A DNA stretch of 64,000 nucleotides, from positions 1 to 64,000 of the forward strand of contig CAVWCX010000002.1 of assembly GCA_963753595.1 (NCBI GenBank). Direction: 5' to 3'. Every line of letters starts with the position of its first letter. The stretch's first letter is position 1. This DNA is from Candidatus Methanoperedenaceae archaeon. Lineage in GTDB: Archaea > Halobacteriota > Methanosarcinia > Methanosarcinales > Methanoperedenaceae. A program made the position numbers and the translations under genes. Shown here one piece after another: positions 4,821 through 35,126 of this stretch. The notes below the pieces were generated by a model. It saw only the letters and a program-made list of their open reading frames with translations. It was not told the origin of the DNA and made no database searches.

Positions 4821-4828
4821 GCAGAGAG

Positions 4829-6497: not shown

Positions 6498-6505
6498 AGT
6501 TTCAC

Positions 6506-8232: not shown

Positions 8233-8326
8233 GGTAATGACCTTTTAGAATATCACAATAATCGTCCAAAGATTTTGGGGTCAATAGACAGAACCTTTTT
8301 TAATCCCTTCAGTAAATGAAGTCATA

Positions 8327-9673
8327 ATGTGCGGAATAGCTGGCGCTGCGGGAAAAGATCCTGAAAAATCAGTCCGGAAAATGCTTGAAGTTATCAGACA
8401 CAGGGGACCTGATGGCAGTGGAATATTTTCGCAGGGTGATATCGCTATTGGTAATGTCCTGCTAAAAATAACAGGAGAAAAAAAACAACCGATCTCAAAC
8501 GGCGGCGCACTCACATACAATGGGGAGATATATAATTTCAGGGAAATTGCACAGGATCTTGATCTTAAAACCGATTCTGATAGTGAGACTCTTTTTAGCC
8601 TCATCAAATCCAGAGGTATAGAAGCCGCAGTTAGTGGATCAGATGGCGATTACGCATTTGCGTATGTCGAAAATGGAAAAATATCCCTTGTGCGAGATCC
8701 TGCTGGTGTAAAACCGCTTTATTATTCTTATGGCAATGGATTTTTTTTTGCATCTGAGAAAAAAGCATTATCTGCAATAGGTGAAACTGAAATTAACACT
8801 CTTAAACCGGGTCACATGATGACTTTTTGCGCCAGTAAAATAATTGAAAAAAAAGTTGCTGCTTTTTCTACAGGGGAAATATTGGCCGAAGAATTAGTCG
8901 CGAAAGATTTGCTTTTTGAGACATTGGAACAGTCTGTAAAGAAAAGGCAGTTTGTGCCATGTGCGATCGCATTTTCCGGCGGCCTTGACAGTTCATTCCT
9001 TGCCTCGCTATGCAGGGATGCAAAATTATATTCAGCGGGCATGGCTGGATCGCATGATATTGGACAGACAAAGAAAGCAGCCCAGCTTCTTGGACTTTCG
9101 GATAACCTGCATCTGCATACACTTACTATGGATGAACTGGAAACTGCGATTCCTGACGTGATACGAGCCATCGAATCGTGTGATCCAATGAAAGTAAGTA
9201 TCGCCTTGCCTTTATATTTTGCATCAAAAGATGCTCAGCTTGATGGAATTCGTGTCATTCTTTCAGGCCAGGGTGCGGATGAATTATTTGCCGGATATAA
9301 ACGGTATGAGTCCATGAATTCTCTTGAACTCGGGATCGCGCTAAAAAAAGACCTTGACAACATTGCAGAAAATAATCTTGAGCGTGATGATGCGGTGACT
9401 ATGGCAAATTCAGTTGAGCTAAGGGTTCCCTACCTTGACCGCAAAGTCATTGAACTTGCTTTGCGGATCGCTCCTGAACTCAAAATACATAACGGGATAC
9501 GCAAATATATTTTAAGGCTGGCGGCAGGAAAAATCCTTCATGATGAGCTTGTTTGGAAAGAGAAGAAGGCGGCGCAGTACAGCAGCGGGATTTATTCTGC
9601 GATGGAAAAAATTGCCAGGAAAAACGGGTACAGGGGAGAGAGGGCTTTAGGGAGATATCTGGGAGAATTATAA
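8327..9673 (+). CDS. asnB: Asparagine synthetase (glutamine-hydrolysing)
   Basis: N-terminal MCGIAG Ntn cysteine, HRGPD, YNGEIYN, FSGGLDSS, SGQGADELFAGY. Confidence 0.9.
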   Translation: MCGIAGAAGKDPEKSVRKMLEVIRHRGPDGSGIFSQGDIAIGNVLLKITGEKKQPISNGGALTYNGEIYNFREIAQDLDLKTDSDSETLFSLIKSRGIEAAVSGSDGDYAFAYVENGKISLVRDPAGVKPLYYSYGNGFFFASEKKALSAIGETEINTLKPGHMMTFCASKIIEKKVAAFSTGEILAEELVAKDLLFETLEQSVKKRQFVPCAIAFSGGLDSSFLASLCRDAKLYSAGMAGSHDIGQTKKAAQLLGLSDNLHLHTLTMDELETAIPDVIRAIESCDPMKVSIALPLYFASKDAQLDGIRVILSGQGADELFAGYKRYESMNSLELGIALKKDLDNIAENNLERDDAVTMANSVELRVPYLDRKVIELALRIAPELKIHNGIRKYILRLAAGKILHDELVWKEKKAAQYSSGIYSAMEKIARKNGYRGERALGRYLGEL

Positions 9674-9761
9674 ATCCCGAAAACTTCGCGATCATTGCGG
9701 AGTTTGTGATGACGCACAATAATCTTTTTATTGCTTCATCTCTTTAATGTGTTAGATTTCA

Positions 9762-10589
9762 ATGACAACAAAAGGCATGGAAAATAAAAAAATTGGATTT
9801 ATCGGGACAGGTAAAATGGGCGAAGCCCTGATCAAAGGCATACTTCATGCCAGGCTCGTTCCTTCCGTGAACATCTATGCCTCTGATATGGATTTAGTGA
9901 AATTAAAGACTCTTGAAACTGACCTTGCGATCAATACATGCAAAGAAAATTGCGATGCAGTGATCAATTCTGATATAATAATCATTGCGGTAAAACCGCA
10001 GATTGTTCCTGCGGTCTTAAATGAGATTAAAAGCTCAATAAAGAACCAGTTGATAATTTCAATAGCTGCAGGAGTAACTATAGATACTTATGAGAAAAAC
10101 CTGCCGCACGGGACAAAAGTTGTCAGGGTTATGCCCAATATTGCAGCAACAGTGAAAGAAGCGGCTTCAGCAATAAGTCCGGGAAGCTCAGTATCAAAGG
10201 AGGATATGGCAATTGCAGTAACTATATTTAGCGCGATCGGAAGAACAGTAACAGTACAGGAAAACCTTATGGACGCAGTCACGGGATTGTCGGGAAGCGG
10301 CCCTGCATATATTTTCATGATAATCGAAGCACTTGCCGATGGCGGTGTGCATGAAGGGCTTGACAGGAACACTGCAAAACTTCTTGCGGCACAGACCGTT
10401 CTGGGTTCTGCAAAAATGGTGCTTGAAGGAGGGAGTCACACCGGGGAATTAAAGGATATGGTGACATCCCCGGGGGGAACAACTATCAGGGGACTTCGGG
10501 TAATGGAAGAACAGGGTGTGCGCATTGCTATGATGAATGCCGTGATCTCGGCCTGCGAGCGTTCAAAAGAACTGGGCAAGAAATCATAA
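9762..10589 (+). CDS. proC: Pyrroline-5-carboxylate reductase
   Basis: GFIGTGKMG, AVKPQ, VRVMPN, SGSGPAY, VTSPGGTT. Confidence 0.96.
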   Translation: MTTKGMENKKIGFIGTGKMGEALIKGILHARLVPSVNIYASDMDLVKLKTLETDLAINTCKENCDAVINSDIIIIAVKPQIVPAVLNEIKSSIKNQLIISIAAGVTIDTYEKNLPHGTKVVRVMPNIAATVKEAASAISPGSSVSKEDMAIAVTIFSAIGRTVTVQENLMDAVTGLSGSGPAYIFMIIEALADGGVHEGLDRNTAKLLAAQTVLGSAKMVLEGGSHTGELKDMVTSPGGTTIRGLRVMEEQGVRIAMMNAVISACERSKELGKKS

Positions 10590-10595
10590 AGCAAT

Positions 10596-11396
10596 ATGTC
10601 ACTTCTTTTTGATATCGAAACAAAAGCAAGGAGGAATCATGCGCGTATTGGCCTTGGGATAGGCAAAGTCTCAGAAAAACTGATACAGAGCGCGCAAGGC
10701 GCATGTGAGTACGCTGATGTTGTGCTTGTTGGCGATGAAAAGGAGATAAAAGAGATAGGTACAGACCTTGAAATAATCCATTCAAATGAGCCTCATAAGA
10801 AATTGATCGAATTGCTGCTTTCCGGTAAAATAGATGGAGCAGTAAGGGGAACGCTCAGTGCGACAAAAACGCTTTCTGAGCTTAAAAGATCGCTGAATTT
10901 AAACAAGTTATACAGGGTGGCATTATTAGAAACAGAAGATGGACGGCCTTTTTTCCTTGCGCCGGTTGGGATTGATGAAGGAAATTCCGTTGATGACAAA
11001 GTTGAGTTGATAAAACGCGGCGCAGAGCATTTCAGGCGCCTCGGTGTGGTAATGAAAGTGGGGATACTCTCAGGCGGACGTTTTGAGGATATTGGGCGGG
11101 ATAAGACCGTTGACAGGACGCTTGAAGATGCCGAACTTGTGACAAAAAAAGTCCAGGCGCTGGGAATCGATGTAAAAAATTATTCAATACTGATAGAAGA
11201 TGCGATCGAGGAGGCTAATTTCATTATGGCGCCCGATGGGATATCAGGGAACCTTATTTTCAGGACTCTTGTGTTCCTGGGGGGCGGATACGGCCACGGT
11301 GCGCCTGTATTGATGGAGAAGGTGTTCGTTGATACTTCGCGTGTGGGAGGGCATTATACAAGGGCGATTATGCTTGCAAGCGCGCTCAAGCAATGA
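10596..11396 (+). CDS. mtxX: Methanogenesis marker protein 4 / MtxX (phosphotransacetylase-like)
   Basis: [40 protein letters not shown]. Confidence 0.85.
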
Positions 11397-11799
11397 GATT
11401 CCCAATAATTATAACAAACTCATAAAAGTCATCAATCTCTTCTTTGAGGTATTGATATGCTTTGGAATCATCCACTTTACCGTATTTATGGACAAGTAAA
11501 TTCCTGAATCCAACCATATCCTGAAGTCTGTCTGAGAGTTTCGCTGGAATTATTTTTTCTTCGGCAAGCTTTCGTATTGCGTCCCTGTTATCTTTTGGAA
11601 GTCCCAGTTTTTTCCCGGCAATTATCAGGTTGCAGATATCAAGAACATTTTCGCATCCAAGCTGGAAGGTTCTTTCGCATGCTCTCCTTGTCATGCGTTT
11701 TTCGAGATATTCATCTTCCTCAACAGGGATGTCTTCATTGAGTTCAACAAGATATACCTGAAGTTCGCTCAATTTGTCTCTAATTCTTTCAATGTCCAT
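11386..11799 (-). CDS. HepT-like (DUF86/HEPN) RNase toxin
   Basis: GFRNLLVHKY RX4H motif; downstream of an MNT gene. Confidence 0.88.
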   Translation of the reverse strand: MDIERIRDKLSELQVYLVELNEDIPVEEDEYLEKRMTRRACERTFQLGCENVLDICNLIIAGKKLGLPKDNRDAIRKLAEEKIIPAKLSDRLQDMVGFRNLLVHKYGKVDDSKAYQYLKEEIDDFYEFVIIIGNLIA

Positions 11800-11806
11800 G
11801 TCTCTC

Positions 11807-12211
11807 TCATATTATCCGAATTTTACTTCCTGTTCTCTCCATGACTGCCTTGTTGTAGTATTCCCTGTATTGTTTATAGCCTGCATATTCCAGGTCGTTC
11901 TCTTTAAGAAGCGTGAGCAGATAGTACATATCTTTTGTAAAAAGCACTTTTCCCTCTTGCGCTATCCTCTTCCTGATGTGGACTGGCAGGTCGAAATATA
12001 TTGAAATATCTACACCCGATGGCATGGCTGAATCTATCGATAATCTTTCTCTTAAACTGAGTTCTTTGATGGGAATTATGCAGATATCTATATCTCTCCC
12101 CGAACTTCCCCTTGCCCTTGAACCGAAAAGCAGAATACTCTGGATAAAGTCAAAGCTCTTTAAAGTCCTAAGAACTTCATCGATTTCGGTTTCTGCTTGT
12201 GTTGTTTTCAT
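11807..12211 (-). CDS. Minimal nucleotidyltransferase (MntA-type antitoxin)
   Basis: LFGSRARG...DIDI motif. Confidence 0.88.
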   Translation of the reverse strand: MKTTQAETEIDEVLRTLKSFDFIQSILLFGSRARGSSGRDIDICIIPIKELSLRERLSIDSAMPSGVDISIYFDLPVHIRKRIAQEGKVLFTKDMYYLLTLLKENDLEYAGYKQYREYYNKAVMERTGSKIRII

Positions 12212-12436
12212 TTTATTGTACTAATCTGGTCGATAAATCCATCAGAATTCTTTTGTTAGTATTATGACTGACTAACTATTTTATAATAACCTTTTCTTAT
12301 CAAGACTTCAGGTTATTTCCAAAACCTGATTCAGTTTCATTCACCTTTGTACAAGGCTTTCGATATATCTTTAAATGCGAAGGTGCATCGGAAAGATCGA
12401 TAGCGATTATAAAAACTTCTGATTATACTCTTGAAT

Positions 12437-13234
12437 ATGTCCCTCCATTCCCTCCTCCAGAATAAGCTCCCCCCCGAAAAACTCGCCCTCCTCCCTAAAG
12501 GCTTCGAAGTAATTGGTGATATCGCGATAATCAACATCCCGGATGCTCTTGATAATGAAAAATATCTTATCGCGGAGGCATTATCAATTCACAAGAAAGG
12601 CCTGAAAACCGTCCTTCGAAAGCTCAATAAGATCGAAGGCGCGGCAAGGATCGCGGATTTTGAACTGCTGCTCGGGAACAGGACAACCACGTTGCACAGG
12701 GAGAACGGCTGCGTCTTCTTCCTGGATGTAACAAAAACATTTTTTTCAGGAAAAATGTATTATGAGAGGAGCAGGATCGCGCAAAAAGTAAATGATGGCG
12801 AGGATGTCCTTGTTTTATTCGCCGGTGTCGGGCCGTTCCTTATCCCGATAAAGAAACAAAGGAATGTCAACATCATCGGACTTGATAACAATCGGGAAGC
12901 TTGCACTTTCCTGGGTAAAAATCTTGAACTGAATCACATCGAAGCAAATATTCTCCTTGGTGATGCGCGGCATATTAACAATCTTTTCAAAAAGAGCTTT
13001 GACCGAATCGTGATGCCAGCGCCTTATGGGCAGGACTTCTTCCTGGATTTTGCCCAATCAATTTTGAAACCAGAAGGGTATGTCCATTTCTATACTTTCA
13101 AGAAGGATTTTGAGATACCTCATTTCAGGAGGCTGCTTGAAGAAAAAGGGTGGCTTATTGATTTCTACAGGGATTGCGGGGACGTGGCGCCAAGGGTGAA
13201 AAGGTATGTTTTTGATTTGCGGTTGAGGGGATAG
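12437..13234 (+). CDS. Trm5/Tyw2 (Met-10+-like) tRNA SAM-dependent transferase
   Basis: FEVIGDIAII, HRENGC, LFAGVGPF, FDRIVMP. Confidence 0.82.
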   Translation: MSLHSLLQNKLPPEKLALLPKGFEVIGDIAIINIPDALDNEKYLIAEALSIHKKGLKTVLRKLNKIEGAARIADFELLLGNRTTTLHRENGCVFFLDVTKTFFSGKMYYERSRIAQKVNDGEDVLVLFAGVGPFLIPIKKQRNVNIIGLDNNREACTFLGKNLELNHIEANILLGDARHINNLFKKSFDRIVMPAPYGQDFFLDFAQSILKPEGYVHFYTFKKDFEIPHFRRLLEEKGWLIDFYRDCGDVAPRVKRYVFDLRLRG

Positions 13235-13257
13235 TAGTACATTAAGAGAAAAATTAA

Positions 13258-13352
13258 AAAATAGAACACGGATGACACTGATGACGTGGATACACACGGG
13301 ATCAGATCATCTGTGAAAATCCGTATGATCCGTGTCATCAGTGTTCTATTTT
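13258..13352. repeat. Palindromic element with 9-bp-periodic arms (ACACGGATG type)
   Basis: AAAATAGAACAC-GGATGACACTGATGACGTGGAT ... ATCCGTATGATCCGTGTCATCA-GTGTTCTATTTT. Confidence 0.85.
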
Positions 13353-13439
13353 CCTAAATTCCCGAAAATTAGGCACTATGTTCTGATTTTCGGGTAGTGT
13401 ACTAACTTTCGTGACCTGATGTCTTATGTGTCTTTTTCA

Positions 13440-13507
13440 GACAGGATCAACAGGATTTACAGGATTAACCATAAAAATCGTATCCTGTCGATCCTGTTAA
13501 TCCTGTC
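13440..13507. repeat. Palindromic element with 9-bp-periodic arms (ACAGGAT type)
   Basis: GACAGGATCAACAGGATTTACAGGAT ... ATCCTGTCGATCCTGTTAATCCTGTC. Confidence 0.85.
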
Positions 13508-13733
13508 AAATCGCACCAAGTTCAATTAATACAGACAAGTCATAATTTGTAGGCACTGCTGATTTTCGTAATACGCAGCCCACAAGGGAAAAATATAATA
13601 GTGCCTAATTAGGCGTTATAGTCAGATCTAATTTCGCTATGCTGCAATTAAGAAAATGATCTGATGCCCAAAAAATAGGGAATTTAGGATTTTAGTCTAA
13701 AGTCAGTTTCATCCCTGCAAAAATCACGATTAT

Positions 13734-14276
13734 TTATTCGATCAATACTGCAGCAGCAAACACTGTAGTCCATAATCCATCCTTATTACCTTCGGCCGAC
13801 TGGCAGGTATTTGAAGTCTTGAATATATGGCCGCTTGCCTTGTATATCTGCTTTCTTTCATCCCATGCTGTGTTTATGTCAAATTCGATGCCCAATGTTG
13901 TGGCAAGCATCGTGGCTGCAAGGTCTTCAGCATAATCCCCTGCCTTTTTCGCAACTTCTCCAAATGAATGATGCTCGGATAGATATCCATAAACACTGGT
14001 ATCTTTCGGAACTGCAACACCGATAGCCGCAGCCATTAATCGATTAGGCTCATTGGTTTCATTCCTGGCAATTACGCAGAAGGTTATCTGGCCCGGGTTT
14101 AGGTGTTTTAATCCCTCCTCTTTTGGAATGATCCTGCAATTTGGCGGCAGGATGCTTGATACTGAAACAAGGTTACATTTCTCAACACCTGCTTCCCTCA
14201 ATGCAAGCTCGAACGAAGTAAGCCTGTCTTTGTGTACTCCTACTCCTTTTGTGAAGAATATTTTTTCGGGGATCAT
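13734..14276 (-). CDS. pdaD: Pyruvoyl-dependent arginine decarboxylase
   Basis: [20 protein letters not shown] self-cleavage site, YGYLSEHH. Confidence 0.93.
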
Positions 14277-14470
14277 AGTGAATCTCCCATATTTATGTTA
14301 CAGCCCCACAATAGATATTAGTGCGTCGCGGATATTTATTTGTTATTGTGCTTCGGAGTCAAGAATACCTTGCTGAATATCAAGTGTCATGAAAAACCTA
14401 TATCATTCACCATACAGTAAACCAGAAAATAGAGATGATGCAGGGCGTTTTTAACATAAAATTGCAGTAG

Positions 14471-14701
14471 TTAAAGATAAGTTGAAAACTCTTCTTCATC
14501 CACTTTTGCCAGTTTTAGAATTCCCTTCAAGGTTCCTATCTTTATTTCGTCATGCATAGGGACCACAGTTCCAACTTTTCCGTCGGGAGTATCCTTTGAT
14601 AACCTCGCATGACTTCCAGTTCTCCCACTGATCTTAAAACCCATTTTATTACAGAGAATTTTGATGACTTTTTCTCCAGATATGTTTCTAAGCCTTGGCA
14701 C
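14471..14701 (-). CDS. hicA: HicA-family toxin
   Basis: GSHARL and VVPMHDEIKIGTLKGILK motifs; GTG start overlapping hicB. Confidence 0.88.
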   Translation of the reverse strand: MPRLRNISGEKVIKILCNKMGFKISGRTGSHARLSKDTPDGKVGTVVPMHDEIKIGTLKGILKLAKVDEEEFSTYL

Positions 14702-14909
14702 CAACAGCCACCTCAAAGGTTGTCATAAGAGTCTTGCTCAATTCTTTTAAAGGGAACTCTTCCAGATAAAGCTCTGTGGCCTCTTTGAGATTACTTAAAG
14801 CTTCTTCGATGGTTTTTCCCTGACTTACAGTTCCTACCTCAGGGCACTCTGCAACATACATATCTTCTTCTTTATGAAGAACAGCTGTTAAAGTACTCAT
14901 TTTCATCAT
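14688..14909 (-). CDS. hicB: HicB-family antitoxin
   Basis: YVAECPEVGTVSQGKTIEEALSNLKEA motif. Confidence 0.9.
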   Translation of the reverse strand: MMKMSTLTAVLHKEEDMYVAECPEVGTVSQGKTIEEALSNLKEATELYLEEFPLKELSKTLMTTFEVAVGAKA

Positions 14910-14938
14910 AAATATTAATGTTTTATCTTCTACTTAAC

Positions 14939-15193
14939 TTATACAGTATTCTTCAGTTCTCTCAGGGCTTCATAGTCTTCTTCAAGCTCCCTGACATCCT
15001 CAACTCCAATCCTGGGAATAATCCCTTTTTCCAGAAGGAACTCTTTCATTTCGGTCAAAGAAATCCCAGCCATGCTTGCAGCTTTGGCAAGGGATATCTT
15101 TCTTTCCATGTAATGCGCCACAGCTACCTCTTTTAATGTTGCAGTGATATCCAATCGAGCTCCATAGAACCTTGCATTAACCTTTGCGATCAT
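14939..15193 (-). CDS. UPF0175-family HTH protein (putative antitoxin)
   Basis: KISLAKAASMAGISLTEMKEFLLEKGI and ELEED motifs. Confidence 0.75.
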   Translation of the reverse strand: MIAKVNARFYGARLDITATLKEVAVAHYMERKISLAKAASMAGISLTEMKEFLLEKGIIPRIGVEDVRELEEDYEALRELKNTV

Positions 15194-15244
15194 ATAATTA
15201 TAATTTATCTGGTTTCATTAACTTTATATCTTCAATATGAACAT

Positions 15245-15754
15245 CTATCTTAATTCTCTTATAAATTTATGATAACTATTTACAAAGAATTGTTCTAATT
15301 CTTCTCTTTTTCGGGGTATCATCCTGCCGCTTTTATCTTCGACAAATTTAAAGCACAATTCTACAAAATCCATAGCTGACTTGCAAAGGTCTCTGACTTC
15401 TTTTTCATCATATTTCCTGTAATGTATCTTGCCGAACCTGTCAACGCCATACCTTGAAGGTATATAATAGGATTCAAGTTTGTTAACATCAGGCAGCAGC
15501 TTCATAAAGTCATTATTCCGATCTTTAGATTCCGGGATTACGGATTTGACGAGATAGTTTGTATAGATATGTTCATCTGTGATCAAAATATCAAGAAGTG
15601 AGAGACATGCTTTTGCTGATTTTTCGGAAGCCTGCTGGGAGTGGAATATCGCCATCGAGTAAAGCCCCTCTTCCAACGCTGGTCCGATAATTGAAGTATC
15701 GTTCACCGCATCAAGCAAATATCTGATAGCCCTTGCCTCTCTAATATCAGACAT
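15245..15754 (-). CDS. HEPN domain protein
   Basis: FHSQQASEKSAKA and YIPSRY motifs; follows an MNT gene. Confidence 0.82.
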   Translation of the reverse strand: MSDIREARAIRYLLDAVNDTSIIGPALEEGLYSMAIFHSQQASEKSAKACLSLLDILITDEHIYTNYLVKSVIPESKDRNNDFMKLLPDVNKLESYYIPSRYGVDRFGKIHYRKYDEKEVRDLCKSAMDFVELCFKFVEDKSGRMIPRKREELEQFFVNSYHKFIRELR

Positions 15755-16145
15755 GATAGCCTACTTTATTGCCTTCTGCAATGATGGGTTTTATGTTCTT
15801 TACAACATTTTCACACTTTAGCAGTATATCTGTCCCATAGAGAAGCCTGCTTGCATGGTATATTTCATAAAGGAAAGGAGAGGAATATTCCAGGTCATCC
15901 ATGCCAATGAGTAATATCTCAAGCGGCCGTTTTATTTTTCCAAGAAGGGAGTATCTTATTCGGGCTATTTTGTCTAAATCCTTTTCAGGATATTCCCTTA
16001 CAATTACAGCAATGTCGTAATCGCTTTTTTCGTTTTCTTCTCCTTTTGCGATGCTGCCAAATAGATATATAGCTTCGACGCTGCTGATTTCATTTAATGC
16101 TGCGTTGACTATTTGTTCAAGGTCTATTTTTTCATCAGTATTCAT
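15747..16145 (-). CDS. Minimal nucleotidyltransferase (MNT)
   Basis: IYLFGSIAKG...SDYDI motif; start moved to the RBS-preceded ATG at 16145. Confidence 0.86.
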   Translation of the reverse strand: MNTDEKIDLEQIVNAALNEISSVEAIYLFGSIAKGEENEKSDYDIAVIVREYPEKDLDKIARIRYSLLGKIKRPLEILLIGMDDLEYSSPFLYEIYHASRLLYGTDILLKCENVVKNIKPIIAEGNKVGYHV

Positions 16146-16343
16146 CACTCTGCCCCCTTCACAACAGTGGGAATATGCCATGATATCTTAGAATCTAAAA
16201 ATTCATTTTTCTCTCTTTTAGACATATTCAGTGCTCCTCTTAATACAATTCTTTTTACGCAAAAAATGGCTATTCGGTAGGGGAGTTTTCTTAAACATTT
16301 TTGTAACTTCTTCTTTTGTTAACATTATTCTAATTAGTATTTA

Positions 16344-16565
16344 TTACACAATACTTCCGATACCGATTAAGATTATACCTACTCTTGAAAATAAGTTATT
16401 AAATACTCCTTCAATGAGGAAAAATCTACTTAATCTATACACGTATTTATTTGATTCAAATCTTATCTTTCTAGCAAAGAAATTTATTAAATTAATTCGT
16501 CCAAATATAATTTCCAGAGAGGTTAGAAAAGTTCCTGTTAAAATTAATATTAAAGATAATTTCAT
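16344..16565 (-). CDS. Hypothetical small membrane protein
   Basis: AT-rich ORF directly after the 16573-17154 gene, hydrophobic termini; no recognisable family. Confidence 0.35.
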   Translation of the reverse strand: MKLSLILILTGTFLTSLEIIFGRINLINFFARKIRFESNKYVYRLSRFFLIEGVFNNLFSRVGIILIGIGSIV

Positions 16566-16572
16566 AATTAAA

Positions 16573-17154
16573 TCATCTCGATAATTCTACCTCTCCTTTG
16601 TTAGCTTTTATCGCCTTTTGTTGTCGTTCAAGAATTTTATCACAGACAAAATCTACAGCTTCCATTTCAGCTAGTAAAAACATCTTTCCTTTATTTTCGA
16701 CAGCATCGTGAAGAAAGGCTCTAGGATTTAGTTTCTGAGAAAGTGAACCTGAAATAAAATAGTTTACACCAATTATTGTCGCTGGAAGCCAAAGATTATT
16801 ATATAAAAGCCAGGGTACCCAAATAAACGTCGATATTGCAATTCCAGACAAATTTGAAGAGTCTGACTTTGATGAAAAAGGATAATAGAAGTAATAGGGG
16901 TATTTGCGAATTACTGCAATTTCATCCACAGAACATTTAGAGGCATCTGATGTTCGTTTTAATGAAAAACTTAGAAGCGATATGTAACCTTCAAATAAAA
17001 TAATAAGGACTAAAAACACTATAGATGCGTTAAATGGCATAAAGAAAGACCAGATAAGAATACCAATTACAAGCAAAGACAAATTTTGCTTTAACCAAAG
17101 CAAAAGAGCCGCTATGTACACGAAGGGCATCTCTAATGCATATCTCAATTTCAT
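16573..17154 (-). CDS. Hypothetical multi-pass membrane protein
   Basis: AAGGAGG upstream; several hydrophobic segments; AT-rich. Confidence 0.7.
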   Translation of the reverse strand: MKLRYALEMPFVYIAALLLWLKQNLSLLVIGILIWSFFMPFNASIVFLVLIILFEGYISLLSFSLKRTSDASKCSVDEIAVIRKYPYYFYYPFSSKSDSSNLSGIAISTFIWVPWLLYNNLWLPATIIGVNYFISGSLSQKLNPRAFLHDAVENKGKMFLLAEMEAVDFVCDKILERQQKAIKANKGEVELSR

Positions 17155-17271
17155 TCTTTAATTCCCTCCTTTTTGTTCAAAATCTTCTGTATAAGAAACG
17201 GGCTTTCCTACTATATCATAAAATATTAATCCCATATAACTACCTCTCTTTCTTATAAAAAATTGAAGGCA

Positions 17272-17847
17272 CTACCGTGCCCTCATCGACTCCAGCGCCA
17301 TTGCCACCATCGCCTTATACTGCTCCACATTCGTAGAATAATGCTCCCTTGCTTTCACTGCATCAGGCTCATTACCCTGCAATTTTGCAAGCCTCTTTGT
17401 GGTCAGGTCTGCTGTCTCAACAACCCACCTGTCGCGCGTTGCGGCATCAACGACATGCATGGACTCAGCCCTGATGGACACAAGGACATTCCCTTCTTTG
17501 GTCGTAAAGGTCGCGGGTTTCCCAATGACTGCGATAAACTCAGGAGGTGCGGACTTTGCAAGCACCTGCGCGGCTTCGGGCTGGTACTGCCCGGCTGATA
17601 CGAAGAATGCGCCAGTGGGGTCAACGATGCGCCCGCGCCAGAATTCGGAATCTGTTCCGATGTCTTCTTTTTCCGTGAGCGTGCCCACTATAAAGACGCG
17701 GTTTGCTTTTGCGCCGGTTGGTGTGATTAGATATTGCGGTGAATACTGGTCATGCCCTTCCTTTGCCTGCAGGTTTGATTCTTTTAGCTCTGCTGCGAAT
17801 ATGCGGTGCGCTATTTCACGTACGAATCCTGATCCATTTTCAGCCAT
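17272..17847 (-). CDS. RPA-associated OB-fold protein (RPA2-like)
   Basis: REIAHRIFAAE, TPTGAKANRVFIVGTLTE, DPTGAFFVSAGQYQPEA; cotranscribed with RPA. Confidence 0.85.
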   Translation of the reverse strand: MAENGSGFVREIAHRIFAAELKESNLQAKEGHDQYSPQYLITPTGAKANRVFIVGTLTEKEDIGTDSEFWRGRIVDPTGAFFVSAGQYQPEAAQVLAKSAPPEFIAVIGKPATFTTKEGNVLVSIRAESMHVVDAATRDRWVVETADLTTKRLAKLQGNEPDAVKAREHYSTNVEQYKAMVAMALESMRAR

Positions 17848-17848
17848 G

Positions 17849-18790
17849 TTACGCCTCCAGTGCTACAGGCGCCGCAGTTGCTGCAAGTACCCTTGCCAGG
17901 TCTTCTTCAATTGGTGATACATCCTGCTTGATCGTATCAACGAGTATGAACCGGTCAAGTCTTGCTCCGGTTACAACATAATAACGTCCCACGAGCTTGC
18001 TCTTGATAACATCAAGCACAACGGCCTGGTCAAGCGCTTCTGTTGCCATTTCCTTTGCCTTATCAAGGGTGATGCCGGTAAAAGCTTCTGTGACTTCCCT
18101 GTTCATCAGGATGTCCTGAACTTTTTCCCCATTATCAATGACAGCTTTGACTCTCAGGTCATAAATTCCATCGACCTTCCCGTGTTCTCCGCACGCGCCT
18201 TTTATTAGCGCCCTGTTGCATTCCGGGCACCGCTTTATCAGGCCTGAGCCGCTCTGGACATCCACGATCGCGCCATGGAATTCGACAAGAGTGTTTCCTA
18301 CCTTGATATCTTCAGGTAGCAGGATAATTTCACTGGTCTTGTTCAGGCTGACGCTAAAGCGCCCCTGCCATTCGGAAGTTGCCACATTCCTGAAAATATA
18401 GCTTTTTCCTTCCTCGACCTGGGGAAGGTTCGCCTTAGTCCATTTCTTGAATGCCACTGTCCCTGATTCATCCCCCAGCAATCCTGTCTGGGAAAGAGAT
18501 TCATGGTTTGTCTCCCATAACTGCACTACTTTGCAGCGAAGACTTACCCACTTTCCATCTTCTTTTATATCTGATGCTTTAACCTGCGGGGTTTCACGCG
18601 GCGTGAAAAATTCAGTTTTCGGGATATTATGTTTCTTTAAAAAGTGATTTGTTACGTTTCGACGAGCTTCTTCAGGCGGGACCTTGAACTTGTTGATCAA
18701 TTGATCCAGCATTGTATTGATTTCACTTGTCTCTACTTTAACGCCCAGTTCCAGGAATCGGGCTTCTATCTGTTTTGCTATTTCTATCAT
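17849..18790 (-). CDS. rpa: Replication protein A (OB folds + Zn finger)
   Basis: QTGLLGDESG, GSGLIKRCPECNR...CGEHG, YDLRVKAVIDNG. Confidence 0.9.
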   Translation of the reverse strand: MIEIAKQIEARFLELGVKVETSEINTMLDQLINKFKVPPEEARRNVTNHFLKKHNIPKTEFFTPRETPQVKASDIKEDGKWVSLRCKVVQLWETNHESLSQTGLLGDESGTVAFKKWTKANLPQVEEGKSYIFRNVATSEWQGRFSVSLNKTSEIILLPEDIKVGNTLVEFHGAIVDVQSGSGLIKRCPECNRALIKGACGEHGKVDGIYDLRVKAVIDNGEKVQDILMNREVTEAFTGITLDKAKEMATEALDQAVVLDVIKSKLVGRYYVVTGARLDRFILVDTIKQDVSPIEEDLARVLAATAAPVALEA

Positions 18791-18920
18791 ATCTTTCCTC
18801 AAGCCTCTTGTTTGATTTTTGTGTTTGAGAGGCAACTCTACCTTATCCTGTGAGGATATAAACCTTACCGGAGCGGGGTGAAAGTAATATTTTAATAAGT
18901 GAGAATTTCATTAAAAAGAG

Positions 18921-28892: not shown

Positions 28893-29333
28893 TTAAGGTT
28901 GTTTATTCAGTAACATCCAGTACATTCCCAGTTGTGCAACTGCCTGGACGAATTTATCAAATTCCACTGGCTTGACGATGTAGCTATTCACGCCAAATTG
29001 ATAACTCTCCACAAGATCCCGTTCCTCATGAGAAGATGTTAATACCACAATCGGTATTGTCCTTGTCTTCTCATCAGCCTTAACCTTACGCAGAATCTCA
29101 AGGCCATCCACTTTTGGAAGTTTCAGGTCGAGGAATATCACTTTTGGCTTTTTCATCATGTTGCGTCCTGCATAAGCCCCGGTGCAATAAATAAATTCAA
29201 GGGCTTCTGCTCCATCTTTCACATGATGTATCTTGTTTGCAAGATTATTTTTCTTAAGAGCTCTCAGTGCAAGCTCAGCATCATTCGGGTTATCCTCTAC
29301 TAAAAGGATTTCCACTTCATTTATATCTGTCAT
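28893..29333 (-). CDS. Single-domain response regulator (Rcp1-like)
   Basis: [32 protein letters not shown]. Confidence 0.92.
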
Positions 29334-30774
29334 TTTTTCATTCCTCCTTCTGAAATATTAAAATAGAATGTTGCGCCTTCGTTGACTTTTCCCTCGGCCC
29401 ATACCTTTCCGCCATGCCTGTGGATAATGCGCTGGACTATGGCAAGGCCAACTCCGGTTCCTTCGAAATCCTCGGCGCTGTGCAGTCTCTGGAAGACCCC
29501 GAACAACTTATTTAAATACTGCATATCAAACCCAACACCGTTGTCTTTGACATAGTAGACATTTTCATTATTTTGGGCAATGCTGCCGATCTCAATAACA
29601 GCATTTTCTTTAAATCGTGTGAATTTAATGGCGTTTGCGATAAGATTAACAAACACCTGGTGAATCATTGCCTGGTCTCCAATTGCAGGTGGAAGTGTTT
29701 TAATTTCAAGCTGGATATTTCGTCCGTTTCCTCTTTAAGTTCATCGAATACAGTTATTGCAAGTTTTGCCATATCTATACTGGATACCTGCATCTCTTTT
29801 CGCCCCAGACGGGACAGGGCGAGAAGATCCTCGATAAGTTGTCCCATTTTCTGCGTGTTGTCCCTGACAATATTCAAATATCGTTTACCTTCATCATCGA
29901 GTTTATCTGCATATTCCTCTAACATAACACGTGAAAAACCGTCGATTGCACGCAGCGGCGCTCTCAGATCATGGGAAACTGAATAGCTGAACGCTTCAAG
30001 CTCTTTGTTGGCTGTTTCGAGTTGTGTTGTGCGCTTGATGAGTTCTTTTTCAGCACGCTTGCGTTCTGCCAGTTGTATCTTTGTTTCTTCATAGAGTCTC
30101 TCATTTTCCTTGCTGCGGTGGATAAGTTCCCCTGAAGCGTTGCGTACAAAGGCATATAAAGAACAGTAAAGGATAACAAATCCAATACCGATGCTGACCC
30201 ATACAAAGGTACGCATTTTGGCAATGCCTGGCTCAAGTACGTCCATATCCTGATATATTTCGTAAACTCCAGCCACCTGATTTGAATCCACAGGCAACAG
30301 GGGGACATACACTTCGAAAAGCCTTCCATACTCTTCTCTTTCACCTTTATTTTCTTCTTTCTCCGGAGAAACAGCACTTACGATTTTGCCGTCAAGAGCC
30401 TCCTCGAGTTCATCATTATCAGTGAAACGCCGCCCTATTTGTTCTTTCTCATCCGAGTAGAGAAGCAGACCGTCCCGGCTCCATATTTTTACCCGGACAA
30501 CATTTCTATTGAGTACATTCTCCCGAATAAGTGAATCAATCTGTTCATATCTGGCAGGGTCAAGAGTCCCATTTAAATCCGCCTGGTGAAGCTTCTGGTT
30601 AAGAATAGTTGAAACCTGGTCAGCAGTGTTCTCGGTGGCTTGCGAAAGAGCATTTTGTTCCATTTGCTGCTGGATGCCCCAACCAAGGGCAATGGCAATG
30701 GCAGCAGTGATGAGAAAGCTGATTATGGTAAATTTGGCCAAAAGACTAAGTTTCGGCAGGCTTATGGGTTTCAT
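29330..30774 (-). CDS. Membrane sensor histidine kinase, frameshifted near 29725
   Basis: Two TM segments and H-box [13 protein letters not shown] in 29665-30774; NAIKF, DNGVGF and GTGVGL boxes in 29330-29668; restoring one base gives a continuous [24 protein letters not shown]. Confidence 0.88.
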
Positions 30775-31019
30775 TTGCTTACCTCGCTGTCCGGGAAATC
30801 CTAATAGGCCCGGAAAAAATCGTCAAAAATATATTTATTCTTATGGCCATAACAATCTTTAGTCTAAGTGTCACTTGAATATAAATTAGAGTGTGAGAAG
30901 TGTGTGATGATTGACATCATTATCATAGTTTTAGCCTGCCAGTCATCCATGAATCGATATCTATTGGCCTGGGGAGCAAGTGCTTGAGTTGGATAGATAT
31001 TCATAACAGTCATAATAGT

Positions 31020-31226
31020 TCATCGTATGAGATTGAAAGACAGGATTCTGAGGAAATACGGAAAAAGATCCTTAATATTTCATATTCTGATTGGAAAAAA
31101 CTAGGTTTTTCGAAAGGTAGATTGCATTATATGAAGCAGAATGCTATGGATGATAAGCCGTTTACCCTGAATAAGCATGTGAGAGATCGTCTTGATGAAT
31201 GGGATAAATTGATTGCAGGAATATAG
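31020..31226 (+). pseudogene. C-terminal HTH remnant of a casposase-type solo Cas1
   Basis: YEIERQDSEEIRKKILNISYSDWKKLGFSKGRLHYMKQNA..DKPFTLNKHV resembles, from recall, the C-terminal domain of Methanosarcinales solo Cas1/casposases; the catalytic domain is absent. Confidence 0.7.
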
Positions 31227-31265
31227 GTTTAACCCAAGGATATCTGTCAAGACTCACACAAGAAC

Positions 31266-31329
31266 ACCAAATAAAACCGAAGGATTACAGAATAAAGCTG
31301 AAGGAATACCGAAGGAACATCGAATAAAT
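31266..31329 (+). repeat. Six degenerate 10-11-bp tandem units (ACCGAAGGAAT / ACCGAATAAA)
   Basis: ACCAAATAAA ACCGAAGGATT ACAGAATAAA GCTGAAGGAAT ACCGAAGGAAC ATCGAATAAAT. Confidence 0.65.
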
Positions 31330-31511
31330 ACACAATTCATGTTGGTAATTGGCCTAATGTGCAATATATTACCTTAAATGTGATTATAGATTGTTATGTT
31401 TACATTCAAACTTTATCCAGTTCTTTTATTTCGATGCTCATCATATAGAACCGTTCACTTCAAATAGTATGCAGTTGAAAATTAATAAATAATTGGCTAA
31501 TACATCTTATA

Positions 31512-31544
31512 TAGCCCTCGTACTTAAGGCAGGGGGTATGTGAC
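31512..31544 (+). mobile_element. Isolated IS200/IS605-like end hairpin
   Basis: AGCCCTCGTACTTAAGGCAGGGGGTATGTGAC resembles the subterminal hairpin plus GTAGTTGAC-type tail of IS605-family ends; no tnpA/tnpB nearby. Confidence 0.4.
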
Positions 31545-31601
31545 TACTCTCATGAACTCTTAATCAATTGACCATATCTGCAAGCGCAAGAACATAAAAA
31601 T

Positions 31602-32894
31602 ATGAAAATAAACTCAATACAAATTGACAAGCTTTTTGAACTATTTGATTACAATATATCATTTAGCAATAATGAAAACTTGTTAATCGTAACAGGTCCA
31701 AATGGATTTGGAAAAACAACGATATTGAATATAATATTTAATTTATTTAATAGAAAATTTCTTTATTTCCAAAAACTCGAATTTGAAAAAATAACTATTT
31801 ATTTAGATAACGATATTTCCATTGTTATTTCCAAAAAGTCAGAAATGGTTAAACCGAATCTCAAATTTGCCTTTATTCAAAACAATAAAATGATTGGAAA
31901 ATTTGATTATTCTAACAAGCTAGAAAATGAAATTGCAAGAAACCTTCAAATGTATTTGCCACTTGCTAGATTAGATGACTCAAGATGGATAGATCATCGC
32001 ACAGATAGAGTTTTGACGATAGAGGATATCATCAACGAATATGCAGATCAATTACCTGAGAGAATAAGTAAAAATCTATTGAAGATTAAATCCAAACAAA
32101 TAAATGAAATTCTTGACTCAATAAAAGTTCATTTAATAAGAGAGCAAAGACTGTTTAAACAAGTTAAAAGTGTTGACAGAAATTATCGTGAGGAGAGAGA
32201 GCAAACCATAATGATTGAAACCATCGAGACTTACGCTAATGAACTGAAAGAATTGATTTTATATTACTCACAACAATCTGTTAAGATATCACAAGAACTT
32301 GATAGCAGTTATCCAAATCGTTTAATAAGACAAAAAGGAAAAGTTTCAAGGGACGAATATAATGATCGTTTCAATGAACTTAAAGAAAAACAGAAAAAAT
32401 TGAAAAATTTCGGTTTGTATGAAAGTAAACAAGAAGTTCTAGGATATAGTAAAGCTGATTCAAAAGCTCTTTTAGTATATTTAAATGATTTAGAAAATAA
32501 GTTAGGTGTGTTCGATGATCTTCTTGAAAAACTTGAATTATTTACAAATATTTTAAACGAAAGAAGATTTACATACAAGACTATTGAAGTGGACAGAGAG
32601 AAGGGATTTTATTTTAGGACTATTAACGGAAAGGAATTAGGATTAACGCAACTCTCGTCAGGAGAGCAACATGAAGTCGTTTTGCTTTATGAATTAATAT
32701 TTAAAGCAAGACAAAATACTCTCGTTTTAATTGACGAGCCTGAAATATCACTTCATATTACTTGGCAAAAAGAATTCCTCAATGATTTGTTGAAAATAAT
32801 TAAGATACAAAATATTCAAGTTTTGATTGCAACCCACTCGTCGCCAATTATAAATGGAATGTGGGACTTAGTTTATACTCTTCAAAAAAGTTGA
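31602..32894 (+). CDS. ABC/AAA_21-type ATPase, AriA-like (PARIS-like system)
   Basis: GPNGFGKT Walker A, coiled-coil insert, LSSGEQ signature, LIDEPE Walker B, ATHS; low GC. Confidence 0.82.
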   Translation: MKINSIQIDKLFELFDYNISFSNNENLLIVTGPNGFGKTTILNIIFNLFNRKFLYFQKLEFEKITIYLDNDISIVISKKSEMVKPNLKFAFIQNNKMIGKFDYSNKLENEIARNLQMYLPLARLDDSRWIDHRTDRVLTIEDIINEYADQLPERISKNLLKIKSKQINEILDSIKVHLIREQRLFKQVKSVDRNYREEREQTIMIETIETYANELKELILYYSQQSVKISQELDSSYPNRLIRQKGKVSRDEYNDRFNELKEKQKKLKNFGLYESKQEVLGYSKADSKALLVYLNDLENKLGVFDDLLEKLELFTNILNERRFTYKTIEVDREKGFYFRTINGKELGLTQLSSGEQHEVVLLYELIFKARQNTLVLIDEPEISLHITWQKEFLNDLLKIIKIQNIQVLIATHSSPIINGMWDLVYTLQKS

Positions 32895-32900
32895 TATTAA

Positions 32901-33740
32901 ATGAAAAAACAGGATATTACTTTTCAAGATAAACTAATTGAACTAAGACTTGATATTTCACATCCTAAGAGTATAGGGAAAGTTTTTATTCTCTTAGAAG
33001 GCGAAAGCGATATTAGACTTTTTAAAAAATTATTCAATTTAAGTAATTGCAAAGTTGAAAATATTCCTGGAGGTAAGGAAAAACTTGAAGAATGTGTTGG
33101 AATATTGGTCAATATTTACCCACTTATTATCGGAATTAGAGATGCTGATTTTATTCACTTGGAAGCAAAACCATATGAAAAAGCAAATGTTTTTTTAACA
33201 GATTTCCATGACATAGAAATGATACTTATTTCAGAGGGCGATGTATTCAGTTCATTAGTATTTGAATATACCAATTTGCCAAAAGATAAACATGATGAAA
33301 TAAGAAATAATATTATGCGCTCAATTGAACAAATAGGCTATTTAAAGTGGCTTAATGATAAAGAAAGTTTAGAATATAAATTTGAAGCAGGATTTCAAGA
33401 CTTAATATCATTCGCAAATCTTGAAATAGATTTCAATCAATATTTTGGCAGAGTTCTGTCTAAATCGCCAAATGCTAAAATTACCGATAAAAAAATTATT
33501 CTAGATAAAATGAGGGCTTTGAAAGCCACGAATCCTAACCCATTACAATTATGCAATGGACATGATTTCATGAAAGCATTTTCAGAATATATAAAACAAA
33601 ATTATACTGTGAAAAATGTCACTTGCGAACATGTTGTAAGTTGCTCTAGAATGACTTTTACATTTAATCATTACAGTCGGACAAGGTTGCACCTTAATAC
33701 TAAAAGGTGGGCAGACAATATCAAATGTGTCCTATATTAA
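32901..33740 (+). CDS. DUF4435/TOPRIM-like nuclease, AriB-like (PARIS-like system)
   Basis: LLEGESD, GGKEK, IGIRDADF (DxD), TDFHDIE and NGHD motifs; starts 6 bp after the ATPase. Confidence 0.78.
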   Translation: MKKQDITFQDKLIELRLDISHPKSIGKVFILLEGESDIRLFKKLFNLSNCKVENIPGGKEKLEECVGILVNIYPLIIGIRDADFIHLEAKPYEKANVFLTDFHDIEMILISEGDVFSSLVFEYTNLPKDKHDEIRNNIMRSIEQIGYLKWLNDKESLEYKFEAGFQDLISFANLEIDFNQYFGRVLSKSPNAKITDKKIILDKMRALKATNPNPLQLCNGHDFMKAFSEYIKQNYTVKNVTCEHVVSCSRMTFTFNHYSRTRLHLNTKRWADNIKCVLY

Positions 33741-33898
33741 GTGTTGAATTTTTTAAGTTTGAATCTAAGCAAGCTTACCGTTTCACTTTTGGTTTTATTC
33801 TATATTAGCCAAGACGTGCTCCCGAGCCAGATTGCTCACACCCGTATAATTTATCAAGAGTGATGTTTTTCCGAGATACCTATTACCCTAGAAATTGA

Positions 33899-33983
33899 TG
33901 CGGAGGATGGGATTCGAACCCATGAACTCCTGCGAGACAGGACCCTAAATCCTGCGCCTTTGACCTGGCTGGGCGACCTCCGC
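33899..33983 (-). tRNA. tRNA-Leu (anticodon TAG)
   Basis: Minus strand GCGGAGG...CCTCCGC-A acceptor stem, anticodon arm CAGGA-TTTAGGG-TCCTG, long variable arm, GGTTCGAATCC T-loop. Confidence 0.96.
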
Positions 33984-34163
33984 ACGAGCCTTCAGATGAT
34001 TCTTATTAGATAAAGCTTTGATGTCTGGAATAATCAGGGAAAAATAATCCTTAACTTAGCCCAATTTAGGGAATATATAATATACATTGTGCCGTTGCAA
34101 GTCGAAATCATGGATTTTTAATATTACGTAAATATGTATTAGTAGGTTTTTTTTTCAAGAACT

Positions 34164-34361
34164 CACCGCAAAGTACGCAAAGAGCGCAAAGATTAGAATA
34201 ATCGTTCTTTGCGTACTTTGCGCCCTGGTATGAAAAAACAACGAACTAATACGAACTGAAACGAACTCAAGCTACCAGAGTTCGTTCGTGTTCGTTTATG
34301 TTCGTTGTTTTTTTTCATTTTTATTTATGAATCGGGAGGATTCATGGCCGACTTTGCGGTG
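34164..34361. repeat. Nested palindromic elements: ACGAAC-type element (34230-34318) inside a CGCAAAG-type element
   Basis: CACCGCAAAG TACGCAAAG AGCGCAAAG ... CTTTGCGTA CTTTGCGCC [ACGAAC x3 ... GTTCGT x3] CTTTGCGGTG. Confidence 0.85.
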
Positions 34362-34485
34362 TTTAAATGTCGATAAAATGTCACAAGAAACTATAATATA
34401 GTTATTAGTTTTTATAATGCATTATTTTATTTTGATATTAGGTAAAACATGCAAAGTTACGGATAATCTAAAATTGAAAGGATCG

Positions 34486-34544
34486 GTGCGTTGGCAGGTA
34501 ACCAACCCTGAATGTAATCCCCACTCCCCAACCTGCCGAAGCAC
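34486..34544 (+). ncRNA. Candidate hairpin sRNA with C-rich loop (same architecture as the 4.8-5.0 kb pair)
   Basis: Stem GTGC-G-TTGGCAGGT/ACCTGCCGA-A-GCAC; loop contains TAATCCCCACTCCCC. Confidence 0.45.
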
Positions 34545-34688
34545 AACAGGTAAAGTATATAGTAGCACCAAGAAATAGTCTATTATCATTGGAGTACTAC
34601 CCCAACACTAACACTTTTTTTGATACCTGAAAACTGAAACAAGGAAGTAATTATGATTAAATAAGGATCGTAACTATAAAGTTCAAAA

Positions 34689-35126
34689 ATGAAAGGAATA
34701 TACGCTCTTATTCTCAGGTTGAATAACGACATCGACCTTACCATAGGAAGACTCGGGAAGTTCCATTTTAAGACCGGTTATTACTATTACATAGGTTCAG
34801 CGCTTGGTATGGGCGGATTCAAGCGCGTAACAAGGCATTTCAATGTGGCTTTGGGAAAAAACAAAACGAGGAAATGGCATATAGATCATCTTCTTCCCCA
34901 TTCAGAGGTTATATGCGCCGTACTGTTGCCGACATGTGAAGCTCTTGAATGCAAAGCGGCAAAAACCCTTATGGAATTTTCACAATTCATCCCGGGATTC
35001 GGGTGCAGTGATTGTACGTGCAGATCACATCTTTTTTTCCATGAACTGGATATCAAGAACGATATAATAAGTATCGCCAATAAGCTGACAGGAAACGAAA
35101 GTATCATTATTTATCCCGGCATGTAG
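34689..35126 (+). CDS. GIY-YIG nuclease family protein (DUF123)
   Basis: KGIYAL, YYYIGSA, WHIDHL, GFGCSDCTCRSHL. Confidence 0.88.
   Translation: MKGIYALILRLNNDIDLTIGRLGKFHFKTGYYYYIGSALGMGGFKRVTRHFNVALGKNKTRKWHIDHLLPHSEVICAVLLPTCEALECKAAKTLMEFSQFIPGFGCSDCTCRSHLFFHELDIKNDIISIANKLTGNESIIIYPGM

Follow-up and report, generated by a model that had tools for sequence, protein, structure and literature searches.

A probable family-2 casposon stub with an intact PARIS operon at a tRNA-Leu gene of a Methanoperedenaceae archaeon

Introduction

Casposons have mostly been discussed as ancestors of CRISPR adaptation. Here we examine a 64,000-nt stretch of DNA from Candidatus Methanoperedenaceae archaeon (contig CAVWCX010000002.1, positions 1 to 64,000; hereafter the window), in which an AT-rich segment with a putative phage anti-restriction-induced system (PARIS) lies beside a tRNA-Leu(TAG) gene. 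The locus raises two questions: whether this segment is what remains of a casposon, and whether such an element brought the defence genes there. A preliminary description of the window had answered both in the affirmative, proposing one end of a decayed tRNA-Leu casposon with surviving cargo and, more generally, casposons that deliver defence genes. Our results uphold the element's end, the casposase tail and the target copy, but not the delivery of the defence genes. Overall, we consider it probable that what remains at the locus is an immobile stub, left by a family-2 casposon of the kind known from Methanosarcina mazei, with an intact PARIS in its cargo slot. It is a decayed member of a known element family, not a new kind of element. 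The assembly that contains the window (G000) measures 2.89 Mb in 37 contigs and is 92% complete.

A casposon-like end at tRNA-Leu

Read out of tRNA-Leu(TAG), the minus strand gives ...CCTCCGCA TCAATTTCTA GGGTAATAGGTATCTCGGAAAAAC. The last four nucleotides of the tRNA gene, CGCA (33902-33899), are also the first four of the target-site sequence; ten bases, TCAATTTCTA, follow down to 33889, and a GGG-initiated sequence, GGGTAATAGGTATCTC..., starts at 33888, 14 bases from the C of CGCA. This sequence matches the core of the terminal inverted repeat (TIR) of family-2 casposons, GGGWWATAGGTA, at 12 of 12 positions. The arrangement found directly after the intact tRNA-Leu, CGCA plus 10 nt and then GGGTAATAGGTATC, fits the published rule for the target-site duplication (TSD) of 14 bp, in which CGCA is invariant and the 3' part is AT-rich (excerpts of PMC4779613 and PMC6977970), and the position of the insertion, which takes in the last 4 bp at the tRNA-Leu 3' end, is that of family-2 casposons. 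The preliminary description had placed the GGG segment and its 14-nt spacing from the tRNA CGCA exactly, and the rule that it gave for M. mazei (tRNA-Leu 3' end, 14-bp duplication, G-initiated TIR) agrees with the same two papers. Rfam also called the tRNA gene (RF00005, 33899-33983, 49.6 bits, full model 1-71 of 71), as the sole passing match in a scan of 30700-34700, and the order tRNA-DUF123-argC around it is orthologous in genomes of the same genus.

GTDB species genomes were scanned with a casposase alignment, which yielded 248 relatives; the 75 loci kept come from Methanolobus, Methanococcoides, Methanosarcina, Methanohalophilus, Methanosalsum, Methanomethylovorans, some Methanomicrobiales and a few DPANN. 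Exact GGGWWATAGGTA cores number 73 and occur in 40 of these 75 loci; 40 of the cores have CGCA at -14, 19 have TGCG at -4, as expected at the element's other end, and 14 have neither, which leaves a duplication signature at 59 of 73. At nine tRNA-Leu genes of three other genera, a core of the GGGWWATAG type begins exactly 14 nt past CGCA or CGTA in seven cases and at 17 nt in one, while the ninth has none. Among these seven is one that marks the end of a full casposon, some 10 kb long and equipped with casposase and family-B DNA polymerase (PolB), in a complete genome of the same order (G026); this element reaches tRNA-Leu(CAA), from which the minus strand runs through CGCA and 10 further nt into GGGTTATAGGTA. 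Among 24 occupied tRNA-like sites that were tabulated, most have the same junction geometry, and the 34-nt end in the window shares 19-26 of 34 positions with the TIRs at 22 of them (14-15 of 34 at the other two).

Both the 24-mer of the TIR (≤3 mismatches) and the 14-mer of the target (≤1 mismatch) are unique in the 2.89-Mb assembly, so that the genome-wide search for further copies called for in the preliminary description returned none. Because of this uniqueness, and because GGGWWATAGGTA forms the TIR tip in 40 of the 75 loci, we regard the junction as more than a chance resemblance.

A casposase remnant

An open reading frame (ORF) of 80 aa at 30984-31226, pointing towards the tRNA gene, contains the C-terminal helix-turn-helix (HTH) of a casposase. 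The remnant corresponds to residues 336-404 of the 405-aa casposase of G026 (67% identity, E 8.7e-26, tblastn) and to residues 354-419 of the M. mazei casposase structure 6OPM_A (E 2e-26), a code that appears in the M. mazei casposase paper (excerpts of PMC6977970). The casposase C-terminal HTH that had been proposed at 31020-31226 is therefore confirmed. At the DNA level, the part of G026 that matches is the 3' end of the gene for this Cas1 protein (Cas_Cas1 7e-68), which lies 2.3 kb from the gene of a 792-aa PolB (DNA_pol_B_2 1.7e-12). A phmmer search with the 80-aa ORF against 1.8 billion representative proteins gave 255 matches at E ≤0.001; the 150 listed are mostly short, and those with a length of 387-404 aa belong to Cas1 (Pfam Cas_Cas1 1e-53 to 1e-65) and match the ORF through their C-terminal 60-70 residues. 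By itself the ORF has no significant match in Pfam, PADLOC or NCBIfam. Casposase homology begins abruptly at 31017; upstream of this position no frame resembles a casposase, and tblastn with the G026 casposase across the assembly found nothing besides the HTH remnant and no catalytic part at the locus or elsewhere.

Relative to CRISPR Cas1, family-2 casposases have 60-70 extra C-terminal residues with a predicted HTH (excerpts of PMC6977970). An origin of the fragment from a CRISPR adaptation Cas1 is excluded, since the fragment matches only this HTH extension, which CRISPR Cas1 lacks. Elsewhere in the genus, matches to the full-length casposase (23-44% identity) begin within its N-terminal half and extend no further than residue 342, so that none of them covers the HTH.

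Two further observations concern the casposase HTH and its surroundings. Just 3' of the stop codon of the remnant, at 31273-31328, there are three imperfect direct repeats with a unit of the CCGAAGGAAyA type. A predicted protein of 2937 aa (P0004) has 16 separate casposase-HTH matches, and is possibly a read-through of tandem casposon stubs.

The site in the genus

If the GGG motif were a host feature, relatives that lack the island should share it, and this was looked for. Eleven loci around argC in the same genus were examined, five of which included the orthologous tRNA-Leu(TAG), and the motif GGGTAATAGG is absent downstream of the tRNA at all five. The HTH fragment occurs in one of 49 genus genomes (G000), which is also the only one of the 49 with the exact TSD-plus-TIR spacing and core pattern. 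The empty orthologous sites, together with this restriction to G000, argue that the motif is not a host feature and that the element is foreign to the genus.

When up to one mismatch is allowed, 17 genus genomes including G000 have the pattern; 12 of these loci were examined, and no tRNA adjoins any of them. One recurrent one-mismatch string, CACATC.ATAAA.CGGGTTATAGGTA, occurs in five genus genomes with no tRNA near: on another contig of the window's assembly (C6) and in four other genus genomes. It was read as conserved host sequence. The single metagenome match to the 20-nt TIR tip (L160) has no tRNA, no correctly placed CGCA or TGCG and no similarity to the window, and was set aside as chance.

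The DnaK DNA of the host genus is 66-71% identical to that of five genera carrying these casposons, and the family of the host genus (f1) differs from that of G026 within the same order. The preliminary description had suggested that tRNA-Leu-targeting casposons extend to the host lineage; a footprint is indeed present there, in 1 of the 49 genomes. As no other trace of a family-2 casposon was found in this genus and family, the footprint points to a horizontal reach beyond the genera of the 75 related loci.

An intact PARIS operon in the cargo slot

The slot between the HTH remnant and the TIR is AT-rich, spans 2.66 kb, and holds a genus-dispersed repeat and an uninterrupted AriA/AriB operon. 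AriA matches Pfam AAA_15 (1.1e-19) and AAA_21 (1.7e-16), PADLOC AriA (8.6e-25) and the AriA structure 8UX9_B (3.4e-19), and has a Walker A motif (GPNGFGKT, from residue 32), a signature motif (LSSGEQ, 351), a Walker B motif (LIDEPE, 376) and an H-loop-like ATHS (410). AriB matches Pfam DUF4435 (7.2e-10; 39.5 bits against a cutoff of 27) and PADLOC AriB (1.2e-13) and has the motifs LLEGESD (from residue 31) and RDADF (from residue 80); compared with PDB sequences it gave no match at E ≤0.1. For both proteins the Pfam scores exceed the curated cutoffs. The two genes lie on the same strand 6 nt apart, which is the two-gene arrangement of PARIS. With a GC content of 0.286, 31602-33740 is lower in GC than the host genes on either side (0.443 and 0.454) and than the window as a whole (0.412), in line with the AT-richness noted earlier.

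In Escherichia coli PARIS, an AriA hexamer holds AriB, and binding of a trigger leads to release of AriB and cleavage of tRNA-Lys (excerpts of PMC11464382). By analogy, AriA would here hold AriB inactive until a viral trigger appears, and the freed AriB would cut a host tRNA and stop translation.

The repeat directly upstream of AriA is present in 19 of 49 genus genomes, G000 included, as copies that are 73-87% identical, with one to three copies each; the second G000 copy is at C34:9477-9572, and further copies are at L115, L116 and L147-L159. As an observation on this repeat, it is about 150 nt long when dispersed, and in many cases the next 50-350 nt downstream lead to the start of a plus-strand ORF (PARIS here; Shedu SduA in G009). 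It might be an sRNA, a promoter module or a miniature inverted-repeat transposable element. The repeat was tried as a marker of defence genes and rejected, as ten other neighbouring ORFs have no PADLOC match.

In related loci, the interval from the casposase 3' end to the TIR ranges from 567 to 14513 bp (n=45), and the two longest (8634 and 14513 bp) cross other elements; here it is 2662 bp. Three one-ended, 5'-truncated relatives (L084, L091 and L093) have the same order of casposase fragment, some kilobases of DNA, TIR and tRNA-Leu, and a further truncated one of this layout (L086) has a second TIR that is still recognisable. Several of these slots hold defence genes. The 7.6-kb slot of L036 contains HsdM, HsdS and HsdR with a HEPN protein, a trio that recurs in L064 and L070; that of L086 contains a methyltransferase, PbeA (9e-193) and PbeC (1.6e-59), and that of L091 an LmuB-like ATPase (5e-28) with an ABC-3C middle-component domain. 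PARIS thus joins the defence modules found between casposase and TIR. Many other slots contain ORFs with no PADLOC match, judged from the 25 commonest families of 72 ORFs.

Table 1. Features of the tRNA-Leu locus, in window coordinates
Feature	Position	Strand	Basis or remark
Weak candidate for a degenerate distal TIR, TAATAGG..CGGAAAAA.ATC	30799..30825	+	local alignment; uncertain
5'-truncated casposase (Cas1-solo) gene, C-terminal HTH only, 69 codons and stop	31017..31226	+	tblastn, 6OPM_A match, alignment
Non-coding genus-dispersed repeat, 186 nt, directly upstream of AriA	31375..31560	+	no recognisable casposon origin
AriA-like ABC ATPase of PARIS, 430 aa, uninterrupted	31602..32894	+	Pfam, PADLOC, PDB
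AriB-like TOPRIM/DUF4435 effector of PARIS, 279 aa, uninterrupted	32901..33740	+	Pfam, PADLOC
tRNA-proximal casposon TIR GGGTAATAGGTATCTCGGAAAAACATCACT, tip at 33888	33859..33888	-	family core match; absent from orthologous sites
14-nt target-site sequence CGCATCAATTTCTA, CGCA and AT-rich tail	33889..33902	-	sequence; single copy
tRNA-Leu(TAG), integration target	33897..33984	-	ARAGORN

Missing parts and the distal end

The loss of polB, of the casposase catalytic domain and of the other TIR, as had been proposed, agrees with what remains, namely one HTH tail, one TIR and one target copy. Between 30775 and 33888 there is no ORF for a protein-primed PolB, and the PolB of the G026 casposon used as query found no match in G000, a 92% complete assembly. 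A second copy of the 14-nt target was not found in the assembly at ≤1 mismatch, and a scan of the window and of G000 for a partner of the proximal TIR gave no convincing second TIR.

Several candidates for the distal end were considered. The candidate at 30799-30825 scores 21 against the proximal TIR, a score reached by 4 of 1000 shuffles of 30775-31020 (246 nt) and also at four or more other places in the window; its string, at 30802-30822, lies just beyond host homology and has neither a terminal GGG nor an adjacent TSD copy. A candidate at 31218-31230 is also weak as a second TIR. A TSD-like plus TIR-like string at 31205-31228, abutting the stop codon of the remnant, was rejected, as 28% of 300 shuffles reach its score. 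We therefore take the distal boundary to be either lost or degenerate.

Going by the published mechanism, the casposase would have attached the element ends to the 3' end of tRNA-Leu(TAG) at positions staggered by 14 bp, and gap repair would then have duplicated CGCA plus 10 nt, leaving the tRNA gene whole. As in intact relatives, the casposase gene would have pointed towards the tRNA, with the cargo slot between its stop codon and the TIR. We infer that the remnant can no longer move, because it lacks the catalytic part, PolB and a convincing second end, and because no casposase was found elsewhere in the assembly.

Alternative explanations for the locus

Several points weigh against reading the locus as one decayed casposon. 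There is a single TIR and a single TSD copy, so that the inverted pair of ends that defines such an element is missing and its distal boundary was not located, and within 30775-33888 any resemblance to the 77 casposon-bearing loci compared is confined to 31023-31222 and the TIR. It is by layout, and by nothing else, that the HTH remnant is linked to the TIR 2.66 kb away. Synteny on the left is not conserved in relatives, and there may be a rearrangement or an assembler-made join at about 30.8-31.0 kb: in G014, separate contigs carry the kinase flank and the tRNA flank, and the other neighbours of the two flanks there map to other G000 contigs. The function of PARIS in this archaeon is putative. 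The locus could be a composite, in which a solo TIR and TSD of one casposon stand beside an HTH fragment that comes from another copy, tandem or inverted, or was rearranged, the DNA between them never having been one element. The family often has solo TIRs and tandem arrays (excerpts of PMC4779613; L032, L020 and others), weak TIR- and TSD-like strings abut the stop codon of the fragment, and the break in left synteny would fit as well. However, orientation and spacing are those of a single element, as in L036, L084, L091 and L093, the abutting string is no better than many shuffled ones, and the assembly has no other casposon trace; we consider a composite origin unlikely. More radically, the GGG motif might be a host feature or a chance match, and the ORF a fragment of a CRISPR Cas1 or an unrelated HTH. 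The failure of Pfam, PADLOC and NCBIfam to name the 80-aa ORF and the one-mismatch matches to the pattern elsewhere in the genus would be compatible with this, but the motif is absent at 5 of 5 orthologous sites, the spacing rule is common to 59 of 73 bona fide ends, and the ORF matches specifically the HTH extension that CRISPR Cas1 lacks (excerpts of PMC6977970), with an E value of 2e-26 to 6OPM. That the locus has nothing to do with casposons is thus very improbable, and the single decayed casposon remains our preferred explanation.

The origin of the cargo is a separate matter. PARIS might already have been cargo of a mobile casposon that brought it to tRNA-Leu by casposition and decayed later. 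It sits exactly in the canonical slot, the slot has a typical length, other elements carry defence modules there (type I restriction-modification (R-M) in L036, L064 and L070, Pbe in L086, a Lamassu-like system in L091), the casposon trace is foreign to the genus (1 of 49 genomes), and the base composition of PARIS, with a GC content of 0.286, is foreign too. On the other side, tblastn found no AriA or AriB homologue in the 75 casposon loci, and a 2.15-kb PARIS module with about 79-84% nucleotide identity is also present in four genomes (G013, G042, G086 and G081), where homology extends no more than a few tens of bases past the two genes and where no TIR, tRNA or HTH fragment is near; in G013 the neighbours of the module are an M42 peptidase gene on one side and DHH/ribosomal S15 genes on the other. 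An AriB match was obtained in 39 of 284 genomes of the order, and close ones (66-81% aa identity) only in G013 and G042 of the same genus, G086 and G081 of family f2, and, as a fragment, G112 of family f1. In the Methanosarcinaceae family (f4), where these casposons are common, 26 AriB matches were listed for 177 genomes, each of them with 24-30% identity, so that close PARIS relatives are absent from the f4 genomes sampled. The genus-native repeat, moreover, separates the casposase remnant from PARIS. Judged from sequence, the slot content is a mosaic with local relatives whereas the casposon marks are foreign, because close AriB is limited to f1 and f2, the genus repeat lies in the slot and the HTH occurs in 1 of 49 genomes.

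The claim of the preliminary description that casposons deliver defence genes was therefore not borne out: PARIS occupies the cargo slot, but the module occurs elsewhere without casposon marks. We lean towards an uptake of PARIS from the gene pool of the genus and its sister family, either into a still-active element or into the stub. An import together with the casposon from Methanosarcinaceae is less likely, and arrival by casposition, while possible, is unproven and in our view rather doubtful.

An observation on one copy of the module concerns AriA in G013 (L014, G013:C85, 9570-9650), which seems to shift frame about eight codons past the aligned ATG. The listed ORF starts later, with TTG, and the tblastn match runs from residue 9, which may indicate a frameshift or another start.

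Comparison with known elements and significance

The closest published counterparts are the family-2 casposons of M. mazei (e.g., MetMaz1FA1A3-C2), which share the target (tRNA-Leu CGCA plus 10 bp), a duplication length of 14 bp (read here from a single copy), the G-initiated TIR of about 30 nt and the casposase C-terminal HTH (the one part of the enzyme left here). In M. mazei, solo TIRs, tandem copies, both orientations and the 14-bp duplication with CGCA have been published (excerpts of PMC4779613). Unlike these elements, the stub has no PolB, no catalytic domain and no second TIR or TSD, its host genus, which has no other trace of them, belongs to another family of the order, and its slot holds PARIS. 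The casposon of Methanolobus sp. WCC5 (L036, NZ_CP146981.1) has the same TIR subtype, GGGTAATAGGTATC..., and the same order and orientation of casposase, cargo, TIR, TSD and tRNA-Leu. In contrast to the stub it is complete (2890-18811, 15.9 kb), with a perfect 14-bp TSD, AAAACCTAGGTGCG, and a full-length casposase; its cargo is type I R-M with HEPN, not PARIS, and its target tRNA-Leu(TAA), not tRNA-Leu(TAG). L064 and L070 resemble L036 in having defence genes in the slot. As to the cargo, PARIS of E. coli B185 and P4-like satellites has the same operon of ABC ATPase and DUF4435/TOPRIM protein, with all nucleotide-binding and TOPRIM motifs, and it too is associated with a mobile element. It differs in that the host here is an archaeon, the vehicle is a casposon stub and not a phage satellite, and AriB has no PDB match at E ≤0.1.

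A HEPN nuclease has been described in the thaumarchaeal casposon NitEve-C1 (excerpts of PMC6563490), and 48 casposons annotated with PADLOC had fewer defence genes than pipolins (excerpts of PMC11551731). Our literature searches found no paper that links PARIS with casposons. The host lineage, PARIS in the slot and the contrast of foreign casposon marks with locally related cargo appear to be new.

We speculate that the interval from casposase stop to TIR is a dedicated, exchangeable defence slot in casposons of Methanosarcinales, which would serve as vehicles planting defence islands at tRNA-Leu; this is a tentative proposal, and we do not think it probable at present. If true, the stub would represent the first casposon to bear PARIS and, for the genus, the first footprint of this family. 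If the slot regularly carries innate defence, casposons would also be present-day carriers of immunity genes. As a bolder extension, the retained HTH tail may have been kept as a small regulator of the cargo.

Flanking features and other observations

The left flank of the locus is a cassette of kinase, receiver and KaiC genes. Its histidine kinase (29330-30774, minus strand) is apparently split into two overlapping ORFs, one with HisKA and a membrane part (369 aa, 29665-30774) and one with the HATPase_c part (112 aa, 29330-29668), which may reflect a frameshift, a sequencing error or a real split. Another G000 contig (C18), syntenic with the tRNA flank of G014, was considered as a relative of the site and dismissed, having neither tRNA nor TIR. 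An island formed by a tyrosine integrase was likewise rejected, as the locus has no ORF for an integrase, and the 3' part of the tRNA is not directly repeated over more than the 14-mer.

Between tRNA-Leu and the DUF123 gene, at 34160-34370, there is a palindromic repeat with the look of a miniature inverted-repeat transposable element. It has many copies in G000 (C4, C5, C10, C24, C27, C30, C33 and C36; 73-99% identity) and is also found in relatives within the genus.

Among the related casposon loci, some casposon ends (L040, L043, L044, L047 and L080) abut a partial tRNA-like 3' piece (GGTTCGAATC...CCCT CGCA) with no full tRNA, that is, pseudo-target sites. In G026, ORFs of 310 and 137 aa lie a few kilobases beyond the presumed casposase-side end of the casposon (L013, G026:C1:1317000-1318400). 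At L032 (JAIPUR010000043.1, 2761-6932) there are tandem miniature casposon-like units of 1275 and 1608 bp, with facing TIRs that share 14-nt spacers; at least two units of this array contain a casposase HTH fragment alone and look like non-autonomous deletion derivatives.

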